DNA of 39,350 nucleotides, taken from a virus. Its lineage: Duplodnaviria > Heunggongvirae > Uroviricota > Caudoviricetes. Below the pieces are notes generated by a model. It did no database searches, was not told where the DNA came from, and saw only the letters and a program-made list of their open reading frames with translations. Shown here piece after piece: positions 5,641 to 39,350 of this stretch. The position numbers were made by a program, and so were the translations under genes. The stretch lies in the IMG/VR virus record IMGVR_UViG_2698536590_000009, positions 1 to 39,350 of that record. The stretch is one strand, 5' to 3'. Numbering within the stretch: position 1 is the stretch's first letter; each line of letters begins with the position of its first letter.

Positions 5641-6801
5641 TTATTCAACCTCTTCTAAACTGCTCACTCTGGACCCTCGGCGGAAATTATCATCATTTTT
5701 AACATACTCATATGAATCCAGAATCAAACCAGATATGCGAAGTATATCTTCCGGATTAGTTATATGTATCCTTTTACCATCCGTATCAAGTCGAGCTCGT
5801 CTTATTTCATTCAACTGAACTTCACTAAGCGAAATAGGTAATGTTATAAATGAAGATTTTTTATCATAAAATCTTAACAGCCATCTATTAGTTTTACCAT
5901 TCAATAGTACACCAAAATATGACTCAGTATCTTTATATTCTATATTATCTTCTGTTTGTATGATTTGTTTTACCCTTTCAAATAGTTCCAATTCTTTGGC
6001 TGTGGTTATTATGTTGGGGTTTTCTTCATCAACAATGGCGTTATTAACTTGTGTATCCGTTGCATCATTTTCTTTAGTTTGCTCTACCGGTTGTGTAGAT
6101 AGCCCGGAAACCACCATTGCGCTAACAGCGCGCTCAACGGCCTGTTTAACTAATGGAGTCACGAACTCAAGAAATCTCTGATTAAGTTGTCTCTCAATAT
6201 TTGAACGACTAGCAACATATCGAACAAACTCCAGATCAACTTCACGAAGACTAGAACTGATTGTTTTAGTAAATGAATTCAAATAAACACTTTCTTCAGC
6301 CAGTGTCCGTAAAGCCTCTGGTTTGAATTTATCATAACGAAAACGAAATAATTGTGTAATATCGGAGTGAGTTAGAGAATCCATTCTTATTTTTAAAAAC
6401 GGCGTTGAATCCATTATGTTTTTTTGTTTCAAATCCGTAAAAAAACGCCATTCAACACCATTTGTAATGGCTGATATAGTAACTTCCGGTGTTGAATTAA
6501 AATATCTTGATAGCTGTGGGCAGTGATTATCAATTTGTTCTGAAAACGATTTCGCCTCAATGAACATCACAGGAACATCATGACAAAATAAAGCGTAATC
6601 AACCCGTTCATTAGCCTTAACCCCGGGGAAGTCAGCACTATACTCAGCTTTGACTTTTCTTGGATCATACGGAGTAAAACCAAGAATATCTAGTAATGGC
6701 ATAATGAGTGCTTGTTTTGTCGTTTCTTCAGTTGTACAAAACACCCCCATTTTTGCAACATGCTCTGTGTGTATTTTTAACTTATTTGCAAAATTTTCCA
6801 T
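5641..6801 (-). CDS. Restriction-endonuclease-fold protein: N-terminal type I restriction enzyme HsdR-N-like PD-(D/E)xK domain plus uncharacterised C-terminal domain; accessory (moron) gene, candidate anti-phage defence
   Basis: N-terminal motif pattern ...ALIMPLLDILGF...RVDYALF...VMFIEAKS...ITNGVEWRFF matches HsdR_N-type nuclease signature (recollection); AT-rich relative to flanking tail genes; own GGAGGAG SD (start likely ATG 6801, track start 6816), own terminator. Confidence 0.6.
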   Translation of the reverse strand: MENFANKLKIHTEHVAKMGVFCTTEETTKQALIMPLLDILGFTPYDPRKVKAEYSADFPGVKANERVDYALFCHDVPVMFIEAKSFSEQIDNHCPQLSRYFNSTPEVTISAITNGVEWRFFTDLKQKNIMDSTPFLKIRMDSLTHSDITQLFRFRYDKFKPEALRTLAEESVYLNSFTKTISSSLREVDLEFVRYVASRSNIERQLNQRFLEFVTPLVKQAVERAVSAMVVSGLSTQPVEQTKENDATDTQVNNAIVDEENPNIITTAKELELFERVKQIIQTEDNIEYKDTESYFGVLLNGKTNRWLLRFYDKKSSFITLPISLSEVQLNEIRRARLDTDGKRIHITNPEDILRISGLILDSYEYVKNDDNFRRGSRVSSLEEVE

Positions 6802-20092: not shown

Positions 20093-20906
20093 GTTTGCCC
20101 TTCTCCGTTAAAAATTCGTCGGGTAGTTTCTGAGGGGCGTAGATCGGCAGTGCATCGCAACTGCAATAAACCTCCTCCCCAGCAGCAGTGATTTCGTCAT
20201 AAAAACCATATACGGGCTTAATCAGCCCCTGCTCCAGCGCCCACGAATTGCGGAGGAGATAAATTTTCTCGTCGCGCTCTTTGTGGTCCTGTCGGTATTT
20301 GTAGCCCGGACGCCGCCAGTTAGAATGCCAGCGCAGAGCAATCGCTCCACTCTGAACAGCCAGCAGATACTTAACGTTGCTTGCCAGCTTATGCCCCTGG
20401 TCAATTGCCACCCGGCGACTGATAAAATCCATATCCTTCACGGACTTATGAAAACCGGACTTCACTTCCCAGCGATCAATTTCGCTCACCCCGTCAGGCG
20501 GAATGGACGTAACCCACCCCTGAAAACGCTGTATGGTTTTCTCGATGGCCTGTTCGCGGTTGAGTTTTATCAGGTTGGCACTGGCGAAAATTCGCCTGTC
20601 GAGTTCCTTGCGAAACTCAGGTTTCAGTTTTTCAACAGTGACTTTTTTAGGGCCGTCAGGAGGCTGCTCCCGTAATGCCCCGCCGTCGATGACAAGACGG
20701 CTGTAGATGGCGGTGAGATGTTTTCTGGCTACGGTATCATCAGGGGTTTCTCGCTGAGCGGCTACACGGAGTTTCCGGCACCATTCGAGCAATGATTTTT
20801 CGCTATCCCACCCGTGATTTACGTAGTAGTTAACGGCATCCGTCAGAACCTCATATAGCGTCCTGATCCGTTTCTTCTTCCTCACCGCCCGGCTGGAAAT
20901 TGCCAT
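20073..20906 (-). CDS. Minor head morphogenesis protein (Mu gpF-like)
   Basis: Position immediately after portal; ATG at 20906 with AGGAG SD (track ORF extends to 21044 inside portal gene). Confidence 0.5.
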   Translation of the reverse strand: MAISSRAVRKKKRIRTLYEVLTDAVNYYVNHGWDSEKSLLEWCRKLRVAAQRETPDDTVARKHLTAIYSRLVIDGGALREQPPDGPKKVTVEKLKPEFRKELDRRIFASANLIKLNREQAIEKTIQRFQGWVTSIPPDGVSEIDRWEVKSGFHKSVKDMDFISRRVAIDQGHKLASNVKYLLAVQSGAIALRWHSNWRRPGYKYRQDHKERDEKIYLLRNSWALEQGLIKPVYGFYDEITAAGEEVYCSCDALPIYAPQKLPDEFLTEKGKREFNRA

Positions 20907-22287
20907 CAGGCGTCTCCTGCTTCGGTGGTTCATAATTCGCCAGCGCGTCCACATCAATGATGAGTGGAGCTTCGCCATAGGTTTGCGTGGCATTAACAAG
21001 GCTTGCCAGCCATTCAGTGACGGCGGCACGGTTTTCAGGATCAACCTGTGGCGACACGGCAGAGAAAAGTGCTATCGCCTGTTGAATCACTTTACTGTCG
21101 CTTTCCCGGCGTTTGTCCGGCGACTCCTCCACCAGCTCCTGCCATGTCGCGGTAAATTCACGTCGCCACTGGTAAAACGTGGTTTTATAGTCATCAGTTA
21201 TGATGTCCGGGTAATCATTTTTCAGCGACTGATAAAATTCCTCGTTCCAGGCGATGTACTGCACCAGGCGTTCGAAATAATCCATCACAGGTTCAATCTG
21301 CTGGCGTACACCATCGATATACTGGCTGATAGCTTTCGAATCCTCAGTTCCTTCACCGAAACCATTCGAGAAAGCCTCCTCCTTGATGAGAATCGCGGGA
21401 ACATCGCTACCTGATGCAATATCGGAAATAATGTTGTCGCGGGCGGCATTTAGCGCGCCATCGATGTTTTGTAAATTCAGCGAGGTAACGTCCTCATCCT
21501 TCCCGATACTAAGCACACCTTTATTTTTTGCCTCTTTAACATTTTCCCTTTTTCGTCCCGTGGCGGCAGCCATGATCCCGTCAAGTTTCGAACCATACTG
21601 CACAACTTTAGCCACCAGTACGCCTGCCTTCTGGCTGACGAGATCATTCGCCTCCATCGTATTGATATAGGATTTCAGGGAATAAAGAACGCGCTGAAAC
21701 ACGCTTCGCCCGGTGAATCCGAACGATGAACTCTGAAACTCCAGATAAATCGGTGTGCCATTGAAAATTTTCAGTGTGCGTGACGGATGCCAGTCTTTTC
21801 CGCCAATCTTCAGCTTTTTATTGGCTTCCTGGAAAAACGGGCTGTTTGGGTTCTGGTCAGTCACCATCGAACCAGAAGCGTTCAACGGGTCCCACGCGTT
21901 GATATACACATCATCTTCTGTCAGTCCGAATGTCGGAAGCGGCTCACGACATGGAACACTGTCGGTGCCCACGCCGATCGCTGCGGCACCGTAGCAACGA
22001 GACAGAAAAAACAGATTTTTAATCTTCTCGTTAACCTTCATACGTTCCCATACCTCCTGGAAACGCCGCACAACCCGCTCGTCAGGGTCTGTCTCCACGT
22101 TGTACTGACGCGGCTTACACATCGCCATAAGTATGGGTTTTTCGACAAGTTTTCCGCCCAGAGGATGGAATTGCCACAGCTGCTTACACAATTCATAGCC
22201 AATGTCGGTTCCCGGCTGAATTTCTTCAGCCTCAAGAATATGCATCAGTGCTGAACCGAGGCCGCCAGTAATCTCGATCTCTGCCAT
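20851..22287 (-). CDS. Portal protein
   Basis: About 478 aa, acidic C-terminus, directly downstream of terminase large subunit; ATG 22287 with AGGA SD. Confidence 0.7.
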   Translation of the reverse strand: MAEIEITGGLGSALMHILEAEEIQPGTDIGYELCKQLWQFHPLGGKLVEKPILMAMCKPRQYNVETDPDERVVRRFQEVWERMKVNEKIKNLFFLSRCYGAAAIGVGTDSVPCREPLPTFGLTEDDVYINAWDPLNASGSMVTDQNPNSPFFQEANKKLKIGGKDWHPSRTLKIFNGTPIYLEFQSSSFGFTGRSVFQRVLYSLKSYINTMEANDLVSQKAGVLVAKVVQYGSKLDGIMAAATGRKRENVKEAKNKGVLSIGKDEDVTSLNLQNIDGALNAARDNIISDIASGSDVPAILIKEEAFSNGFGEGTEDSKAISQYIDGVRQQIEPVMDYFERLVQYIAWNEEFYQSLKNDYPDIITDDYKTTFYQWRREFTATWQELVEESPDKRRESDSKVIQQAIALFSAVSPQVDPENRAAVTEWLASLVNATQTYGEAPLIIDVDALANYEPPKQETPDGNFQPGGEEEETDQDAI

Positions 22288-22305
22288 CAAAAATATCCTG
22301 ATTTT

Positions 22306-27383: not shown

Positions 27384-27456
<73 letters not shown>

Positions 27457-27806: not shown

Positions 27807-28170
27807 TAAAACGATAAAAGGACACAATATTATAATGATTATTGGGTTTGGGGCATCGGGTGCCTCCCGAAGTATTCCACTTTACGTGGATACTGTGGTT
27901 TCCCGCTAAACCGACTCTATAAACCACCCTCGCACTGAGGAACGCCCCAATTCATGTTTTCCGACACAGAGATGGCGCATCACTGGTTACTCCACGCTAA
28001 ATCCTGCTTCCTTTCGTGGGCAATGCGCCATTTCTGTGTCATAAAAAATACAGCACTGAGTCTGTAACCGATCTCCATTACAGAATGAGGGACGATAAAG
28101 GTATTAAAGAGATCTGTTCCTCACGAAAACCGCCAGTGCTGTAAAAACTTGTCCAAAAAACAATGAAGTT

Positions 28171-28239
28171 GCGGAGAACAGGAATCGAACCGGCATTACC
28201 AACCTAAGGCTGATGTAATAACCACTATACGATACCTGC
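28171..28239 (-). pseudogene. Degenerate tRNA-like sequence, paralogue of the tRNA-Gly-like gene (acceptor, anticodon and T stems disrupted)
   Basis: Shares GCRGGYATCGTATARTGGYTATTAC...GGTTCGATTCC with the copy at 27385..27456 but stems do not pair. Confidence 0.45.
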
Positions 28240-28761: not shown

Positions 28762-28838
28762 TGGTCCGCCACCGAGGACTCGAACCTCGCACAATCAACT
28801 TAGAAGGTTGATGCTCTATCCCGATGAGCTAGTGGCGG
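28762..28838 (-). tRNA. tRNA-Arg (anticodon UCU), phage-encoded (argN-like position in lambdoid late region)
   Basis: Manual cloverleaf with encoded CCA; anticodon loop CUUCUAA; rare-codon AGA/AGG decoder typical of lambdoid phage tRNA islands. Confidence 0.8.
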
Positions 28839-28840
28839 AA

Positions 28841-28916
28841 TGGTGGCCCTTGCTGGATTTGAACCAGCGACCTGGCGATTATGAGTCGCTCGCTCTCACC
28901 ACTGAGCTAAAGGGCC
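28841..28916 (-). tRNA. tRNA with CAU anticodon, closely resembling E. coli tRNA-Ile2 (ileX-type, lysidine-dependent); ileZ-like phage tRNA
   Basis: Manual cloverleaf with encoded CCA; strong resemblance to remembered ileX sequence; Met identity cannot be excluded from sequence alone. Confidence 0.8.
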
Positions 28917-32105: not shown

Positions 32106-32261
32106 TTACTCCTCAGGTTCGTAAGCTGTGAAGACAGCGACCTCCGTCTGGCCGGTTCGGATTCGTACCTCGCAGAGGTCTTTCCTCGTTACCAGTGCCG
32201 TCACTATGACGGTTAAACAGATGACGATCAGGGCGATTAACATCGCCTTTTGCTGCTTCAT
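32106..32261 (-). CDS. hok: Hok/Gef-family type I toxin (HokD/RelF-like, 51 aa)
   Basis: MKQQKAMLIALIVICLTVIVTALVTRKDLCEVRIRTGQTEVAVFTAYEPEE matches remembered HokD sequence; track ORF extends in-frame to 32318. Confidence 0.85.
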   Translation of the reverse strand: MKQQKAMLIALIVICLTVIVTALVTRKDLCEVRIRTGQTEVAVFTAYEPEE

Positions 32262-32551
32262 AGCCTGCTTCTCCTTGCCTTTCGGCACGTAAGAGGCTAA
32301 CCTACATTTGTGAGACATAGATTGGGCCTCAGATTAATGTTAAGCGTCTTGCAGGACGCGTAATGTTAACTGGGGCTTTTCTCTATCTGCCTTTGGTGTT
32401 CATGCCCGAGGCAGATAGCCTCAAGCACCCGCAGCAATTCTACTTAACTCTCCTTTTCCCGCAAACCGTTTTTATCCCCAGCGGCAAATCGAATACACCA
32501 CCAGCGCCACCGCCATCGCAATTCCTACCGTGGTGAATGCCTCAGGCCGGG

Positions 32552-37462: not shown

Positions 37463-37566
37463 AAGGGTCACCTTAGTAATGTTCGCCAAAATATTAACTA
37501 TACTAATTTAAATGATCAATACTTATATCAGTTTGAGATTATGAGCTGTGTTCATAAGATGGTGGT
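37463..37566. promoter_or_regulatory. Divergent immunity promoter/operator region: PR-like (minus; -35 TTGATC at 37519..37514, 17 bp, -10 TAATAT at 37496..37491) and repressor promoter (plus; -35 TTGAGA at 37533-37538, -10 TAAGAT at 37555-37560)
   Basis: Motifs read from sequence; the plus promoter would start transcription at or near the repressor ATG (leaderless, as lambda PRM). Confidence 0.4.
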
Positions 37567-38031
37567 ATGAGAAGAAAACGCGAAGAAATCGCATCGCCAG
37601 AAGCTACGCAGCGTCTACGCGGAATCTGGGATGCAAAAAAAAGAGAGCTCAAATTGACTCAGGAGCTTGCTGCCGAGCTAATGGGCTTTGAGACGCAATC
37701 TACGGTTAGCCACTATCTCAACGGAAAGGCTCCACTTAACACTGATGCGGCATTAAAATTCGCAGTATTGCTAAGAGTTAAGCCTGAAGACTTGAGGCCT
37801 GATTTAGCTGATCTGATGAATTACGTCCGTTCCTCTGGAACTTATGACGAAAGTTTCGAAGGCGAAGGGTGGCGGATGGTTAACAAGCAACAAGCTGATT
37901 TACTGGATCTTTTTGATATCCTCCCCGAATCAGAAAAAGCAAAACTAATCGAAAGGCTTAAAGGCCAGAATGAACTCTACAAAGAAGCGTTTGAAAATAT
38001 GCTGGCAGCTCAGAAACGCATAAAGAAATAG
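37567..38031 (+). CDS. Prophage repressor, HTH-XRE type without peptidase domain (DicA/RacR-like)
   Basis: HTH segment LTQELAAELMGFETQSTVSHYLNG; C-terminal LLDLFDILPESEKAKL resembles DicA. Confidence 0.65.
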   Translation: MRRKREEIASPEATQRLRGIWDAKKRELKLTQELAAELMGFETQSTVSHYLNGKAPLNTDAALKFAVLLRVKPEDLRPDLADLMNYVRSSGTYDESFEGEGWRMVNKQQADLLDLFDILPESEKAKLIERLKGQNELYKEAFENMLAAQKRIKK

Positions 38032-38053
38032 CCCCCACTACCTCGTAACTAAA

Positions 38054-38076
38054 CCGCCATCCCTGGCGGTTTTTTT
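38054..38076 (+). terminator. Rho-independent terminator after repressor gene (CCGCCA-TCCC-TGGCGG + T7)
   Basis: Seen in sequence. Confidence 0.6.
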
Positions 38077-38267
38077 GTCCCCTGCGCCCCCATCGCCTTA
38101 CTTTTTTATCAAAAAAAACACTAAAATTTTCATTAGGATAGTACATTTTTATCAACAAAATGCATATTTATGTTGATCATCAATATGAATATAACTAATA
38201 TTATTGCAGAAGCAGCACGGCGCTGTAGGTTTTAGTTCCGCCACCCGGCGTTAAGGGGAGAGATAAG

Positions 38268-38402
38268 ATGGTGCATTACGAAGTAGTTCAGTATTTGATG
38301 GATTGTTGCGGTATCACTTACAACCAGGCTGTGCAGGCTTTACGCAGCAACGACTGGGATCTCTGGCAGGCAGAAGCCTCTATCCGCAACAACAAAATGT
38401 GA
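38268..38402 (+). CDS. Small protein (44 aa), YdfB-like
   Basis: Manual ORF with AAGGGGAG SD; resemblance to Qin ydfB is from memory only. Confidence 0.4.
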   Translation: MVHYEVVQYLMDCCGITYNQAVQALRSNDWDLWQAEASIRNNKM

Positions 38403-38412
38403 GGTGCGAAAA

Positions 38413-38565
38413 ATGCAAAAAATCGACCTCGGCAATAACGAATCCCTGGGGTGCGGCGTGTTCCCCAACCAGGATGGAACGTTCACTGCCATGACTTATA
38501 CCAAAAGCAAGACATTCAAAACTGAAACGGGCGCACGTCGCTGGCTTGCCAGAAATACTTGCTAA
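38413..38565 (+). CDS. Small protein (50 aa), YdfC-like
   Basis: Manual ORF with GAGGTG SD, 10 nt after previous stop. Confidence 0.4.
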   Translation: MQKIDLGNNESLGCGVFPNQDGTFTAMTYTKSKTFKTETGARRWLARNTC

Positions 38566-38749
38566 TCCATTATTTGGATTAATTCAATATTCTCGCTGTA
38601 GGGGTATAGCAGAAACCACCAAAGCCCGGAGGTGGTGAAATAAAACCGGGCACAACACGAAGTCGCATTTCCGATATCCATAAAGAGTCGGTCTTGTCTG
38701 TTAAATTTAAATGGTGGGAGTGCGCCTCCGGTTGTGGATAACAACACTG

Positions 38750-38810
38750 CTGTGTGTAGTCTTGGCGGCATCAGTTTTTTCTTGAAGTTCGACTGATGTC
38801 CGCCCTTTTT
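38750..38810 (+). ncRNA. dicF: DicF-like small RNA candidate ending in intrinsic terminator (GGCGGCAUCAG...CUGAUGUCCGCC + U5)
   Basis: Terminator hairpin and flanking sequence resemble remembered E. coli DicF; location between ydfC-like ORF and DicB-position gene as in Qin. Confidence 0.45.
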
Positions 38811-38985
38811 AAAGTGAATTTTGTGATGCGGTGAATGCGGCTAAGCGCACGCGGCACAGTTAAAAGTCATGTTAGTCCTTATTGGTTTGGGTGGGAAAGC
38901 CGACTGTAATTGTTAACTGGTTGCAGTCACCTGGAGGCACTAGGCACCGCATCAACAAAGTTCATTTGTAAAAATGGAGATAATT

Positions 38986-39207
38986 ATGATTGCACATCAC
39001 TTCGGAACTGATGAAATACCACGTCAGTGTGTGACTCCTGGTGACTATATTCTTCATGAAGGCCGGACATATATTGCCTCGGCAAACAATATTAAAAAGC
39101 GAAAACTTTATATTCGTAACCTGACTACAAAAACATGCATTACTGACTGCATGATTAAAGTCTTCCTCGGTCGTGATGGTTTACCTGTAAAGGCGGAGTC
39201 ATGGTGA
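38986..39207 (+). CDS. Small protein at DicB position (possible cell-division inhibitor analogue)
   Basis: ATG 38986 with GGAGA SD (track start 38974); weak KRK-region resemblance to DicB only. Confidence 0.35.
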
Positions 39208-39350
39208 TGACTAAGAAAATAAAATGTGCTTACCACCTTTGCAATAAAGAAATTGAAGAAAGCAAAAGTATTAAAAGACCACTTCATTTCATGCGTGGAG
39301 TTATCCCAACGACGGAAATGAAAAAATATTGTAGTGAAAGTTGTGCCTAG
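39207..39350 (+). CDS. Small Cys-rich protein (47 aa), start overlapping previous stop (TGATGA)
   Basis: Manual ORF, C..C...C..C pattern; ends with TAG at window edge. Confidence 0.3.
   Translation: MTKKIKCAYHLCNKEIEESKSIKRPLHFMRGVIPTTEMKKYCSESCA

Follow-up and report, generated by a model that had tools for sequence, protein, structure and literature searches.

Downstream of the repressor gene in a tailed-phage genome lies a series of small open reading frames, which raised the question of which prophage operon they belong to and whether the RNA and protein encoded there correspond to those of the Qin dicB operon. The window analysed was the complete 39,350 nt of the IMG/VR record IMGVR_UViG_2698536590_000009 (Caudoviricetes), and the segment in question occupies positions 38045-39350. 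A preliminary description had read this segment as Qin dicB-operon-like, with a DicF-like sRNA candidate and a protein other than DicB in the DicB position.

Identity of the segment

Three E. coli chromosomes matched bases 37500-39347 at 100% identity and are annotated in this region with an HTH repressor, a hypothetical protein, a DUF1391 protein, kilR, YdaE and recE. Gene order and spacing matched the K-12 Rac map of ydaG-ydaF-(sieB)-kilS-kilR-ydaE. Judged from these alignments, the segment comes from a Rac-type prophage of E. coli and forms its early-left operon, each part of which was already known. The Qin-type assignment was wrong. The effector gene encodes KilR with 70 of 73 residues identical to the K-12 protein (96%, three residues differing). 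The architectural parallel with the dicB operon was borne out, including a DUF1391 gene, a DicF-family RNA with a terminator and a conserved leader of approximately 175 nt that precedes dicB in Qin. The result is an annotation-level correction, the region being the Rac kil operon, which roughly one in three complete E. coli genomes carries.

Very probably the segment opens the early-left (pL-type) operon of an E. coli prophage of the lambdoid Rac family, with the sRNA KilS acting both in cis and in trans and with KilR and YdaE as protein products. In such an operon the repressor gene and its terminator would be followed by a repressor-controlled promoter region and then by ydaG, ydaF, KilS, the structured leader, kilR and ydaE, and racC-recE would continue the operon past the end of the window. 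The features were as follows.

37567..38031, + strand: prophage repressor (HTH_3; Pfam HTH_3, 36.1 bits)
38051..38077, + strand: intrinsic terminator behind the repressor gene (9-bp stem, 4-nt loop and T-run in a terminator scan)
38164..38207, + strand: candidate OL/pL operator-promoter region
38268..38402, + strand: ydaG homologue, 44 aa (annotated CDS in a near-identical genome; phrog_14709, 124.5 bits)
38413..38565, + strand: ydaF homologue, DUF1391, 50 aa (Pfam DUF1391, PF07151, 98.7 bits against a cut-off of 27.3)
38714..38810, + strand: KilS sRNA primary transcript, 97 nt, homologue of K-12 kilS (b4833; base-for-base alignment with the K-12 kilS feature)
38746..38810, + strand: predicted RNase E-processed KilS, about 65 nt, with seed, GGCGG...CCGCC terminator hairpin and U5 (Rfam DicF match at 38751-38805)
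38748..38763, + strand: KilS seed UGCUGUGUGUAGUCUU, identical to RprA nt 62-77 (Rfam RprA alignment, exact 16-mer; K-12 rprA sequence)
38811..38985, + strand: structured leader ahead of kilR (conservation extends to the Qin dicF-dicB spacer and the kil/dicB leaders of phages)
38986..39207, + strand: kilR, 73 aa, cell-division inhibitor directed at FtsZ (161.6 bits to NCBIfam NF008465 'FtsZ inhibitor protein', cut-off 92)
39207..39350, + strand: ydaE family gene, first 47 codons (NCBIfam NF041288 YdaE_coli, 62.7 bits, cut-off 35)

Repressor, promoter region and small genes

The repressor ORF and the terminator-like hairpin behind it (38051-38072, followed by a T-run) were present as previously noted. 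An assignment of the repressor as RacR was rejected as it had no similarity to RacR. Its C-terminal 50 aa resembled DicA (BLASTP, 30% identity over 50 aa, E 7e-7), and the NCBIfam DicA model covered residues 105-153 only, at 35.4 bits and under its cut-off of 101. Downstream of the terminator, where we infer the operator-promoter region, a 44-nt sequence (38164-38207) formed an inverted repeat of 70% complementarity with 37485-37528, which lies between the divergent cro-like and repressor genes. A putative promoter can be read within it (TTGATC at 38173, a 17-nt spacer and TAATAT at 38196) that fits 8 of 12 consensus positions and falls under the scanner threshold; the sigma-70 promoter scan called none at the proposed pL or in front of KilS.

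The two tightly spaced small ORFs reported earlier were found 10 nt apart. The ydaG product was 93% identical to K-12 YdaG and gave a weak UBA_4 match of 23.7 bits. The ydaF product was 90% identical to K-12 YdaF, matched phrog_751 at 117.4 bits and is labelled a DUF1391 family protein in RefSeq, with an alternative GTG start at 38404 that would give 53 aa. This gene is a paralogue of Qin ydfA. A 69-aa ORF on the opposite strand (38562-38771) runs across KilS and was judged spurious, having no PHROG family and overlapping the conserved RNA.

The last gene of the window was described as a Cys-rich 47-aa ORF overlapping the one before it. The overlap is real, as the ydaE start at 39207 is shared with the kilR stop codon (TGATG) and YdaE would be translationally coupled to kilR, while the true end does not lie at 39350. 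In the near-identical genome ydaE encodes 56 aa, of which 47 codons are present before the window end cuts the gene, and the last three bases of the window (TAG) match no related genome. The window YdaE is Cys-rich like that of K-12, which is zinc-binding, and matched the RPAP2_Rtr1 zinc finger at 29.5 bits, under the threshold of 33.

The effector protein is KilR

The 74-77 aa ORF of the preliminary description corresponds to kilR. An in-frame ATG at 38974 would extend it to 77 aa, and a GGAG Shine-Dalgarno sequence at 38976-38979 favours the 73-aa start, which is also that of the RefSeq annotation as kilR. The NF008465 match spanned residues 1-73 of 73 and the phrog_294 Kil protein family matched at 123.9 bits. 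K-12 KilR acts on FtsZ, and its gene is controlled by NusG-dependent termination (PMC10798246). By analogy with the K-12 protein, KilR of this prophage would block FtsZ-ring function and division would halt.

That the 73-aa protein is a diverged DicB, recruiting MinC to ZipA/FtsZ, was suggested by its position in the operon behind the same leader and by its small size and basic character. DicB (62 aa), however, gave no BLASTP alignment with the protein even at E <= 100, identity to KilR was 96% with a full-length match to the FtsZ-inhibitor model, and kilR and dicB occur in phages as alternative cassettes behind the leader. A diverged DicB is therefore barely credible. The earlier proposal of a different effector or a division inhibitor in the DicB slot was right in kind, but the protein is neither new nor divergent.

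KilS and its DicF-type terminator

The DicF-like sRNA candidate is indeed a DicF-family RNA, but one already named and northern-verified as KilS in K-12. The window copy was 92.9% identical to the K-12 allele over 97 nt (the K-12 RNA being 98 nt), and approximately 120 nt on the promoter side were almost identical to K-12. Its 3' end (38810) and the kilR ATG (38986) are about 175 nt apart, as in K-12. The full-length RNA had a predicted fold of -36.8 kcal/mol (z = -3.6), in which the seed was largely paired with the 5' domain. The terminator hairpin folded at -19.5 kcal/mol (z = -3.7 versus shuffles), and its inner stem carried many different compensatory changes across homologues. Among complete E. 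coli genomes, 1851 of 5426 carried KilS-type copies, while none of 40 non-K-12 genomes sampled had a RefSeq feature under the KilS match. No other Rfam family matched KilS.

Expression data for KilS come from K-12, where a northern-verified transcript of about 100 nt is absent in an hfq mutant and is supported by RIL-seq, with a transcription start site of its own at 1418502 and an RNase E site at 1418471 (PMC8175672). In the same study yncL was the one reproducible RIL-seq partner, and KilS had only one to three partners with low read counts and scores of 0.03-0.15 (PMC8175672). The RNase E site corresponds to KilS nt 32. The presumed site reads AAC/ACUG in the window and GAC/AUUG in K-12 (the slash marks the cut), and since U at +2 is the key determinant of RprA cleavage by RNase E (PMC5222698), processing may be poorer in the window allele, which has C at this position.

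Two roles are proposed for KilS. In cis, its DicF-type intrinsic terminator together with the leader would gate transcription into the toxic kilR, and only read-through would then yield KilR. This has been shown for K-12, in which kilR is switched on once NusG-dependent termination is lost. In trans, KilS would act, by analogy with K-12, as an sRNA that depends on Hfq and is transcribed from a start site of its own. A cut by RNase E just 5' of the seed would yield the RNA of about 65 nt, and its single-stranded 5' seed (UGCUGUGUGUAGUC), the same as in mature RprA, would find its partners among host mRNAs (the yncL 5' UTR, for example) and not in ftsZ.

A DicF-like element of about 60 nt ending in a terminator had been described, and the Rfam DicF model (RF00039) matched 38751-38805 over its full length (1-52) at 42.8 bits (E = 1.2e-7 in a 1.35-kb search). 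The covariance check proposed for this element thus returned a significant E-value at a score under the curated gathering score of 48. The match emerged in the E-value search only, and KilS goes unlisted by a default Rfam scan of the whole window because it falls below that score. For comparison, K-12 KilS scored 39.1 and the true K-12 DicF 76.7. The GGCGG...CCGCC Rho-independent terminator and U-run of DicF, followed by the conserved AAAGUGAAUUUUGUGAUG leader, were all kept at KilS. The loop and 3' stem with which DicF pairs to the ftsZ ribosome binding site (ACUCCGUGACUGCUCUGCC) were replaced by UUUUUUCUUGAAGUUCGACUGAUGUCC, and the 5' seed of DicF (UUUCUGGUGAC), which pairs with xylR and pykA, by UGCUGUGUGUAGUC.

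A functional DicF orthologue at this locus would pair with ftsZ as an antisense RNA and block its translation; RNA and protein would then both hit FtsZ as in Qin dicBF. The significant full-length match is consistent with this, as is the shared position ahead of the same leader and a division inhibitor, and canonical DicF precedes kil in some phages such as phage Evi. The score nevertheless lies below the gathering threshold, and the part of the RNA that was replaced is the one that matters, the DicF 3' region being the regulator of ftsZ (PMC5069750). Cofold binding to the ftsZ ribosome binding site was -4.5 kcal/mol for KilS versus -16.1 for DicF, and Bar et al. (PMC8175672) do not name ftsZ among the KilS partners of K-12 that they discuss. 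A scan of ftsQ-ftsA-ftsZ with the KilS/RprA seed gave no better pairing than shuffled sequence, and such targets were dropped as unsupported (best sites -19.6 to -21.4 kcal/mol against a shuffled-sequence mean of -18.4, sd 1.7). A functional DicF orthologue is thus very unlikely. In these comparisons full-length RNAduplex produced long meaningless duplexes no better than shuffles and was replaced by cofold partition functions and seed-only duplexes; shuffled-sRNA controls are a poor null for cofold as shuffling destroys the sRNA's own structure. The ftsQ-ftsA-ftsZ region had been scanned as ftsA is listed as an RprA partner.

A seed shared with RprA

RprA is a core-genome, Hfq-dependent sRNA belonging to the Rcs regulon, while KilS is prophage-borne. 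In both RNAs UGCUGUGUGUAGUCUU lies directly 5' of the terminator hairpin (RprA, RF00034), and AUUGCUGUGUGUAGUC, with which RNase E-matured RprA begins (its first 16 nt), also occurs in the K-12 KilS allele. The remainder of RprA is unrelated to KilS, which lacks the rpoS-pairing region, and the RprA covariance model gave a match confined to the seed (23.6 bits, E 6.6, gathering score 70). The 16-mer was unique in the window, where 0.01 matches are expected even with two mismatches. A genome-wide scan with the seed as bait is circular for seed conservation, so a leader-anchored scan was added, and the seed was conserved in KilS-type copies found without it as bait.

RprA is matured by RNase E and Hfq at GA/AUU, just ahead of the shared sequence (PMC5222698), which is a position equivalent to the K-12 KilS site; cleavage of KilS there would expose the seed as in matured RprA. 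The two RNAs also share yncL, which RIL-seq and TRIC-seq commonly recover as a target of RprA (bioRxiv 10.1101/2025.09.11.675593). Predicted duplexes of the seed with the -40 to -16 region of yncL had energies of -15 to -19 kcal/mol, only a modest gain over shuffled seeds, as 9-49 of 500 shuffles reached this energy.

It is possible, though we hold it tentatively and at somewhat under even chance, that KilS, phage-borne and built on the scaffold of DicF, mimics the sRNA RprA of the host and that the DicF family is a modular phage sRNA platform. If this is the case, a Rac-type prophage could reach some members of the RprA regulon (yncL and perhaps others) independently of Rcs signalling, or alternatively KilS could compete with RprA for Hfq and targets. 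A functional seed identity would make a clear case of a core-genome sRNA whose targeting sequence a prophage has copied, would suggest that DicF-type RNAs diversify by seed swapping and would aid target prediction for unannotated prophage sRNAs in pathogenic E. coli. A literature search, covering work other than Faubladier and Bouche 1994 on dicF-like prophage sequences, returned no report of the KilS-RprA seed identity or of a KilS-DicF relationship.

KilS could instead have no function in trans and be an intrinsic terminator or attenuator insulating the toxic kilR against transcription from upstream, with the small RNA as a processing by-product, the RprA match due to chance or hitch-hiking and the KilS-yncL chimeras representing misattributed RprA-yncL reads over the shared 16-18 nt. 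Termination control of kilR is known, KilS has few partners with low RIL-seq scores, duplex energies were just modestly better than those of shuffles, and the shared 16-mer permits cross-mapping and cross-hybridisation, one KilS northern probe (probe 2) covering the seed. Probe 1, however, sits in the hairpin outside the shared stretch, and KilS in K-12 accumulates in an Hfq-dependent manner from an independent start site. The seed persisted where the hairpin interior, the sequence upstream and even the genes downstream had changed, which is unexpected of a pure terminator, the RNase E site is placed relative to the seed as in RprA, and a chance match of this kind is expected about 0.01 times per window. 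We therefore consider a purely cis-acting KilS unlikely and retain a KilS with roles in cis and in trans.

The kilR leader and exchange of modules

The leader between KilS and kilR comprised a core domain (38827-38951) closed by UGCGGUG/CACCGCA and an outer helix in which 38813-38822 pairs with 38957-38966. RNAalifold predicted 47 pairs, of which 11 had compensatory changes. The Rfam family STnc100 (RF02076) matched the window leader at 33.9 bits, under its gathering score of 47, and related leaders at 28-43 bits, all likewise below it.

In a comparison of phages, sRNA seed, hairpin, leader and effector gene (dicB or kilR) behaved as independent modules in recombination. Seeds of at least three types were distinguished, namely DicF, KilS/RprA-like and CCAUGUUGAUUACCUUUU, and hybrids exist in which a UGUGUAGUCUUU seed is joined to the DicF anti-ftsZ loop.

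Comparison with known systems

STnc100 as described in the literature is a prophage-associated sRNA, related to PasD, that adjoins Q and the late genes (bioRxiv 10.64898/2026.05.13.724894), whereas the element in the window is a 5' leader. The kilR/dicB leader nevertheless aligns along the whole 206-position model, with the closing helix and the CCUGG-AGGCA-CCAGG hairpin in common.

The proposed comparison with Qin dicF-dicB confirmed that the leader is conserved with the spacer between these genes. The Qin dicBF operon (dicA, ydfA-ydfB-ydfC, dicF, dicB) shares with the window a co-directional repressor, a DUF1391 gene and an sRNA ending in GGCGG...CCGCC, followed by a leader of approximately 175 nt from terminator to start codon and then a division-inhibitor gene. 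The small ORFs ydfA-ydfB-ydfC of Qin differ in set and order from ydaG-ydaF, and the Qin effector DicB is unrelated to KilR.

In K-12 Rac an opposite-strand sieB cassette lies between ydaF and kilS, while the window has no sieB and just 27 nt there. The K-12 KilS seed ends in UCCU and that of the window in UCUU. The repressor of K-12 Rac is RacR, whereas that of the window is unrelated to it with a DicA-like C-terminus, so that the immunity type differs. The order, orientation and spacing of kilS (b4833) and kilR (b1352) are those of K-12 Rac, with a nearly identical leader.

Gene order and prophage type of the segment

All of the features listed in the preliminary description of positions 38045-39350, including the ORFs, the terminators and the DicF-like element, were found in the segment. 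Its likeness there to the Qin dicB operon gave way to a Rac-type assignment, based on the RefSeq annotation, the protein matches to KilR, YdaE and DUF1391, and an alignment with kilS, a small RNA (sRNA) gene of the E. coli K-12 Rac prophage. The RefSeq order for the stretch is HTH protein, hypothetical protein, DUF1391 protein, kilR, YdaE-family protein and then recE.

Features of the segment (window positions)
37567-38031, HTH repressor gene
38051-38072, terminator-like hairpin after the repressor gene
38268-38402, small ORF 1, ydaG homologue
38413-38565, small ORF 2, DUF1391 (98.7 bits)
38986-39207, 73-aa ORF, kilR (77 aa if the upstream in-frame ATG is used)
39207 (ATG), Cys-rich ORF overlapping the kilR stop codon, YdaE family (62.7 bits, cut-off 35)

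The two small ORFs were spaced by 10 nt, and a gap of 420 nt lay between the second of these and the 73-aa ORF. The view that a non-DicB protein occupies the DicB position was borne out, as no DicB similarity of the 73-aa protein was detectable by sequence comparison. With NCBIfam NF008465 ("FtsZ inhibitor protein", cut-off 92) the protein scored 161.6 bits, and it was identical to K-12 KilR at 70 of 73 residues; the earlier suggestion of a divergent division inhibitor or a different effector was right in kind, the protein being the known KilR. The YdaE ORF was truncated at the window end; its full length in the genome copy is 56 aa. Window positions 39348-39350 read TAG where related genomes all read GAA, which extends the ydaE ORF by 9 codons, so that the apparent stop codon is foreign to the natural gene.

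Positions 37500-39347 were 100% identical to three E. coli chromosomes, a single match over at least 80% of the 37500-39350 query was present in 67 genomes, and window 1230-39347 was 99.98% identical to the prophage of strain RM11911, one 1.3-kb indel excepted. The upstream divergent genes were YdaS-like and YdaT-like. The repressor was unrelated to RacR and DicA-like in its C-terminal 50 residues, which indicates that the segment belongs to a Rac-type prophage of a different immunity specificity. In K-12 Rac and several phages the superinfection-exclusion gene sieB, on the opposite strand, separates ydaF from KilS; it was missing here, where only 27 nt (window 38566-38592) extend from the ydaF stop to the point at which homology to the K-12 sieB-kilS spacer begins.

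Other elements of the window included a full-length sok antisense RNA at 32256-32430 (-), scoring 117.7 bits with Rfam RF01794. It belongs to a hok/sok-type toxin-antitoxin locus, and hokD is annotated at the matching place in RM11911. Four tRNA-like genes were found with Rfam on the (-) strand upstream of the lysis genes (27385-27456, 28170-28239, 28765-28838 and 28844-28916); three are annotated in RM11911 by RefSeq (Ile, Arg, Gly), and that at 28170-28239 scored just 31.8 bits and may be degenerate. The indel, at window ~26595, was an absence of ~1.3 kb relative to the RM11911 prophage (L155 12811-14131), including that strain's holin and endolysin genes. For the RM11911 prophage RefSeq also lists two likely accessory (moron) genes, one for an Acb1-family anti-CBASS protein within the head genes and one for a type I restriction endonuclease flanked by baseplate genes; the corresponding window positions would be ~20853-22289 and ~5641-6801, respectively.

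The sRNA upstream of kilR

A DicF-like sRNA had been proposed in this gap, with the Rfam DicF model as its check. A Rfam scan at curated thresholds reported nothing in the gap; searched by E-value, 38000-39350 matched DicF (RF00039) over the full model at 38751-38805 with 42.8 bits (E 1.2e-7), just below the gathering score of 48. The hairpin of this element was predicted at -19.5 kcal/mol (z = -3.7). The K-12 Rac annotation includes the ncRNA kilS (b4833, 98 nt) with its 3' end 175 nt upstream of kilR, and base-for-base alignment placed KilS at window 38714-38810. The proposed RNA element and its DicF-model match were thus confirmed, with KilS rather than a functional DicF as its identity.

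KilS was predicted from Hfq RIL-seq and confirmed by northern blot (Bar et al. 2021, PMC8175672), a study in which DicF and RprA, a core-genome Hfq-dependent sRNA, are both unmentioned. K-12 KilS was seen in wild type, was missing in an hfq mutant and builds up in stationary phase; its TSS was mapped to the 5' end of the RNA, RNase E has a site 31 nt further downstream, and the reproducible partner is yncL (PMC8175672). K-12 KilS scored 39.1 bits with the DicF model compared to 76.7 for true DicF. KilS is therefore a sub-threshold relative of DicF, and it had no match in any other Rfam family. KilS-type sequence was present in 1851 of 5426 complete E. coli genomes; no annotated feature lay under the match in 40 sampled genomes, the sole annotation seen being that of K-12.

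KilS and DicF have in common a GGCGG...CCGCC terminator hairpin, a U-run and then ~175 nt up to the effector (dicB or kilR) start codon, while the DicF 5' seed and the loop and 3'-stem sequence pairing with the ftsZ ribosome-binding site (RBS) occur only in DicF. Repression of ftsZ by DicF depends on its 3' region (Balasubramanian et al. 2016, PMC5069750). Partition-function cofolding gave ftsZ RBS binding of -16.1 kcal/mol for DicF versus -4.5 for KilS, and no site in ftsQAZ rose above background when scanned with the KilS seed. The functional DicF reading was rejected on the missing DicF seed and anti-ftsZ sequence, the weak predicted RBS binding and the empty scan.

A seed shared with RprA

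The KilS seed UGCUGUGUGUAGUCUU (38748-38763), single-stranded and directly 5' of the hairpin, was an exact 16-mer of RprA, positioned identically relative to the terminator in both RNAs. It was the one match in the window, where 0.01 were expected even allowing two mismatches, and the K-12 allele has AUUGCUGUGUGUAGUC in common with RprA. The "internal seed sequence" of pre-RprA is where RNase E, together with Hfq, cuts this RNA (GA|AUU), leaving a mature RNA of ~50 nt whose 5' end starts exactly with the seed (Chao et al. 2017, PMC5222698). K-12 KilS has its RNase E site at the equivalent place (nt 32, GAC|AUUG), so both mature RNAs would begin with identical 16 nt. Among RprA targets common to RIL-seq and TRIC-seq is yncL (bioRxiv 10.1101/2025.09.11.675593), and its 5' UTR from -40 to -16 was complementary to the KilS seed (-15 to -19 kcal/mol, predicted). 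Folding predictions for full-length KilS pair the seed with the 5' domain, suggesting that RNase E processing may activate it. The window allele carries a C at +2 of the presumed RNase E site, a position critical for RprA cleavage, and may therefore be processed less efficiently. It is conceivable, at somewhat under even chance in our estimation, that KilS is a phage-borne RprA mimic on a DicF scaffold and that the DicF family, more broadly, is a phage sRNA platform with independently exchanged parts.

Proposed operon and leader

In the favoured model, the segment is the prophage's early-left operon. A 44-nt inverted repeat connects 38164-38207 with the interval that separates the divergent cro-like gene from the repressor gene and would fit an OL/OR expectation; a weak sigma-70 candidate (TTGATC, 17 nt, TAATAT) lies within 38164-38207. 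Transcripts would cross ydaG and ydaF and then reach the KilS terminator, with kilR, ydaE and recE reached by read-through only. This agrees with the silencing of K-12 kilR by NusG-dependent termination, the product interfering with FtsZ once expressed (PMC10798246). In this model KilS is also transcribed from its own start site in lysogens, and it would act through Hfq with the RprA-type seed.

Between the sRNA terminator and the effector start codon lies a leader, at 38811-38985 in the window, for which an alignment of nine leaders from kilR, dicB and P1/P7 tciA/terB genes gave a multi-branch consensus of 47 pairs, 11 with compensatory changes.

Consensus leader elements (window positions)
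First nucleotides past the terminator with nucleotides immediately 5' of the kilR Shine-Dalgarno, outer helix
38827-38833 with 38945-38951, closing helix UGCGGUG/CACCGCA
38930-38944, hairpin CCUGG-AGGCA-CUAGG

With Rfam STnc100 the window leader scored 33.9 bits and the other leaders 28-43, all below the threshold of 47. The 72-nt form of Qin DicF is produced by an RNase III cut that could plausibly fall within the long outer helix. The leader was also observed upstream of tciA/terB in phages P1 (L007 1501-1620), P7 (L008 1501-1616), D6 and Klebsiella phages, and without any DicF-type RNA in about 30 IMG/VR contigs among the matches listed. The leader thus resembles a mobile RNA module that acts in cis. 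In the P1 GenBank record a 'dicF-like region' is annotated downstream of the C1-controlled ban promoter (L007 212-313, ban operon), which the Rfam DicF model did not detect at E <= 0.05.

Exchange of operon parts

One genome per species was scanned for the seed, which occurred together with GGCGG in Citrobacter, Scandinavium, Superficieibacter, Mixta, Erwinia, Pseudocitrobacter, Enterobacter and Izhakiella. The 14 distinct hairpins all had CCGCC closure and a U-run, with inner stems that differed but compensated; as the seed was the bait, this shows hairpin covariation and not seed conservation. A scan with the downstream leader as sole bait, unbiased for the seed, matched at least 120 viral contigs, 83 among the matches listed having an sRNA module directly upstream.

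Seed types in the leader-baited scan (loci among the matches listed)
DicF seed, about 56
KilS seed, 12
KilS seed, 3' half variant, 6
Third seed type CCAUGUUGAUUACCUUUU, 4 (L038, L104, L113, L144)
Hybrid of UGUGUAGUCUUU seed and DicF anti-ftsZ loop, 2

sRNA and effector combinations (loci among the matches listed)
DicF + DicB, 48
KilS + KilR, 7
DicF + KilR, 2
KilS + DicB, 1

The hybrids, in IMG/VR contigs L040 and L066, had the 3' half of the KilS/RprA seed (AUGUGUAGUCUUU), the DicF anti-ftsZ loop (ACUCCGUGACUGCUCUGCC) and a GGUGG/CCACC stem. Among named phages, Evi carries canonical DicF with Kil and mEp460 DicF with DicB. Seed, hairpin, leader and effector are thus swapped as modules. Outside Escherichia, five loci (L015, L017, L023, L025, L034) had a KilS/RprA-type seed on a longer ~70-nt hairpin with a conserved GGAG...GAAGAUAAUGUUCU motif resembling SD and AUG. 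As in Citrobacter phage phiNP, the genes that follow are a 123-aa ORF and a DUF2303 gene of 275 aa instead of kilR.

Comparison with known systems

A KilS-DicF-RprA relationship and modular seed swapping were not found in the searchable literature, and the remaining interest lies with these. The finding as stated is already known: the window allele occurs unchanged in several sequenced strains, the K-12 Rac annotation already includes the sRNA and all of the genes, and the window combination, KilS with KilR, is the same as that of K-12 Rac.
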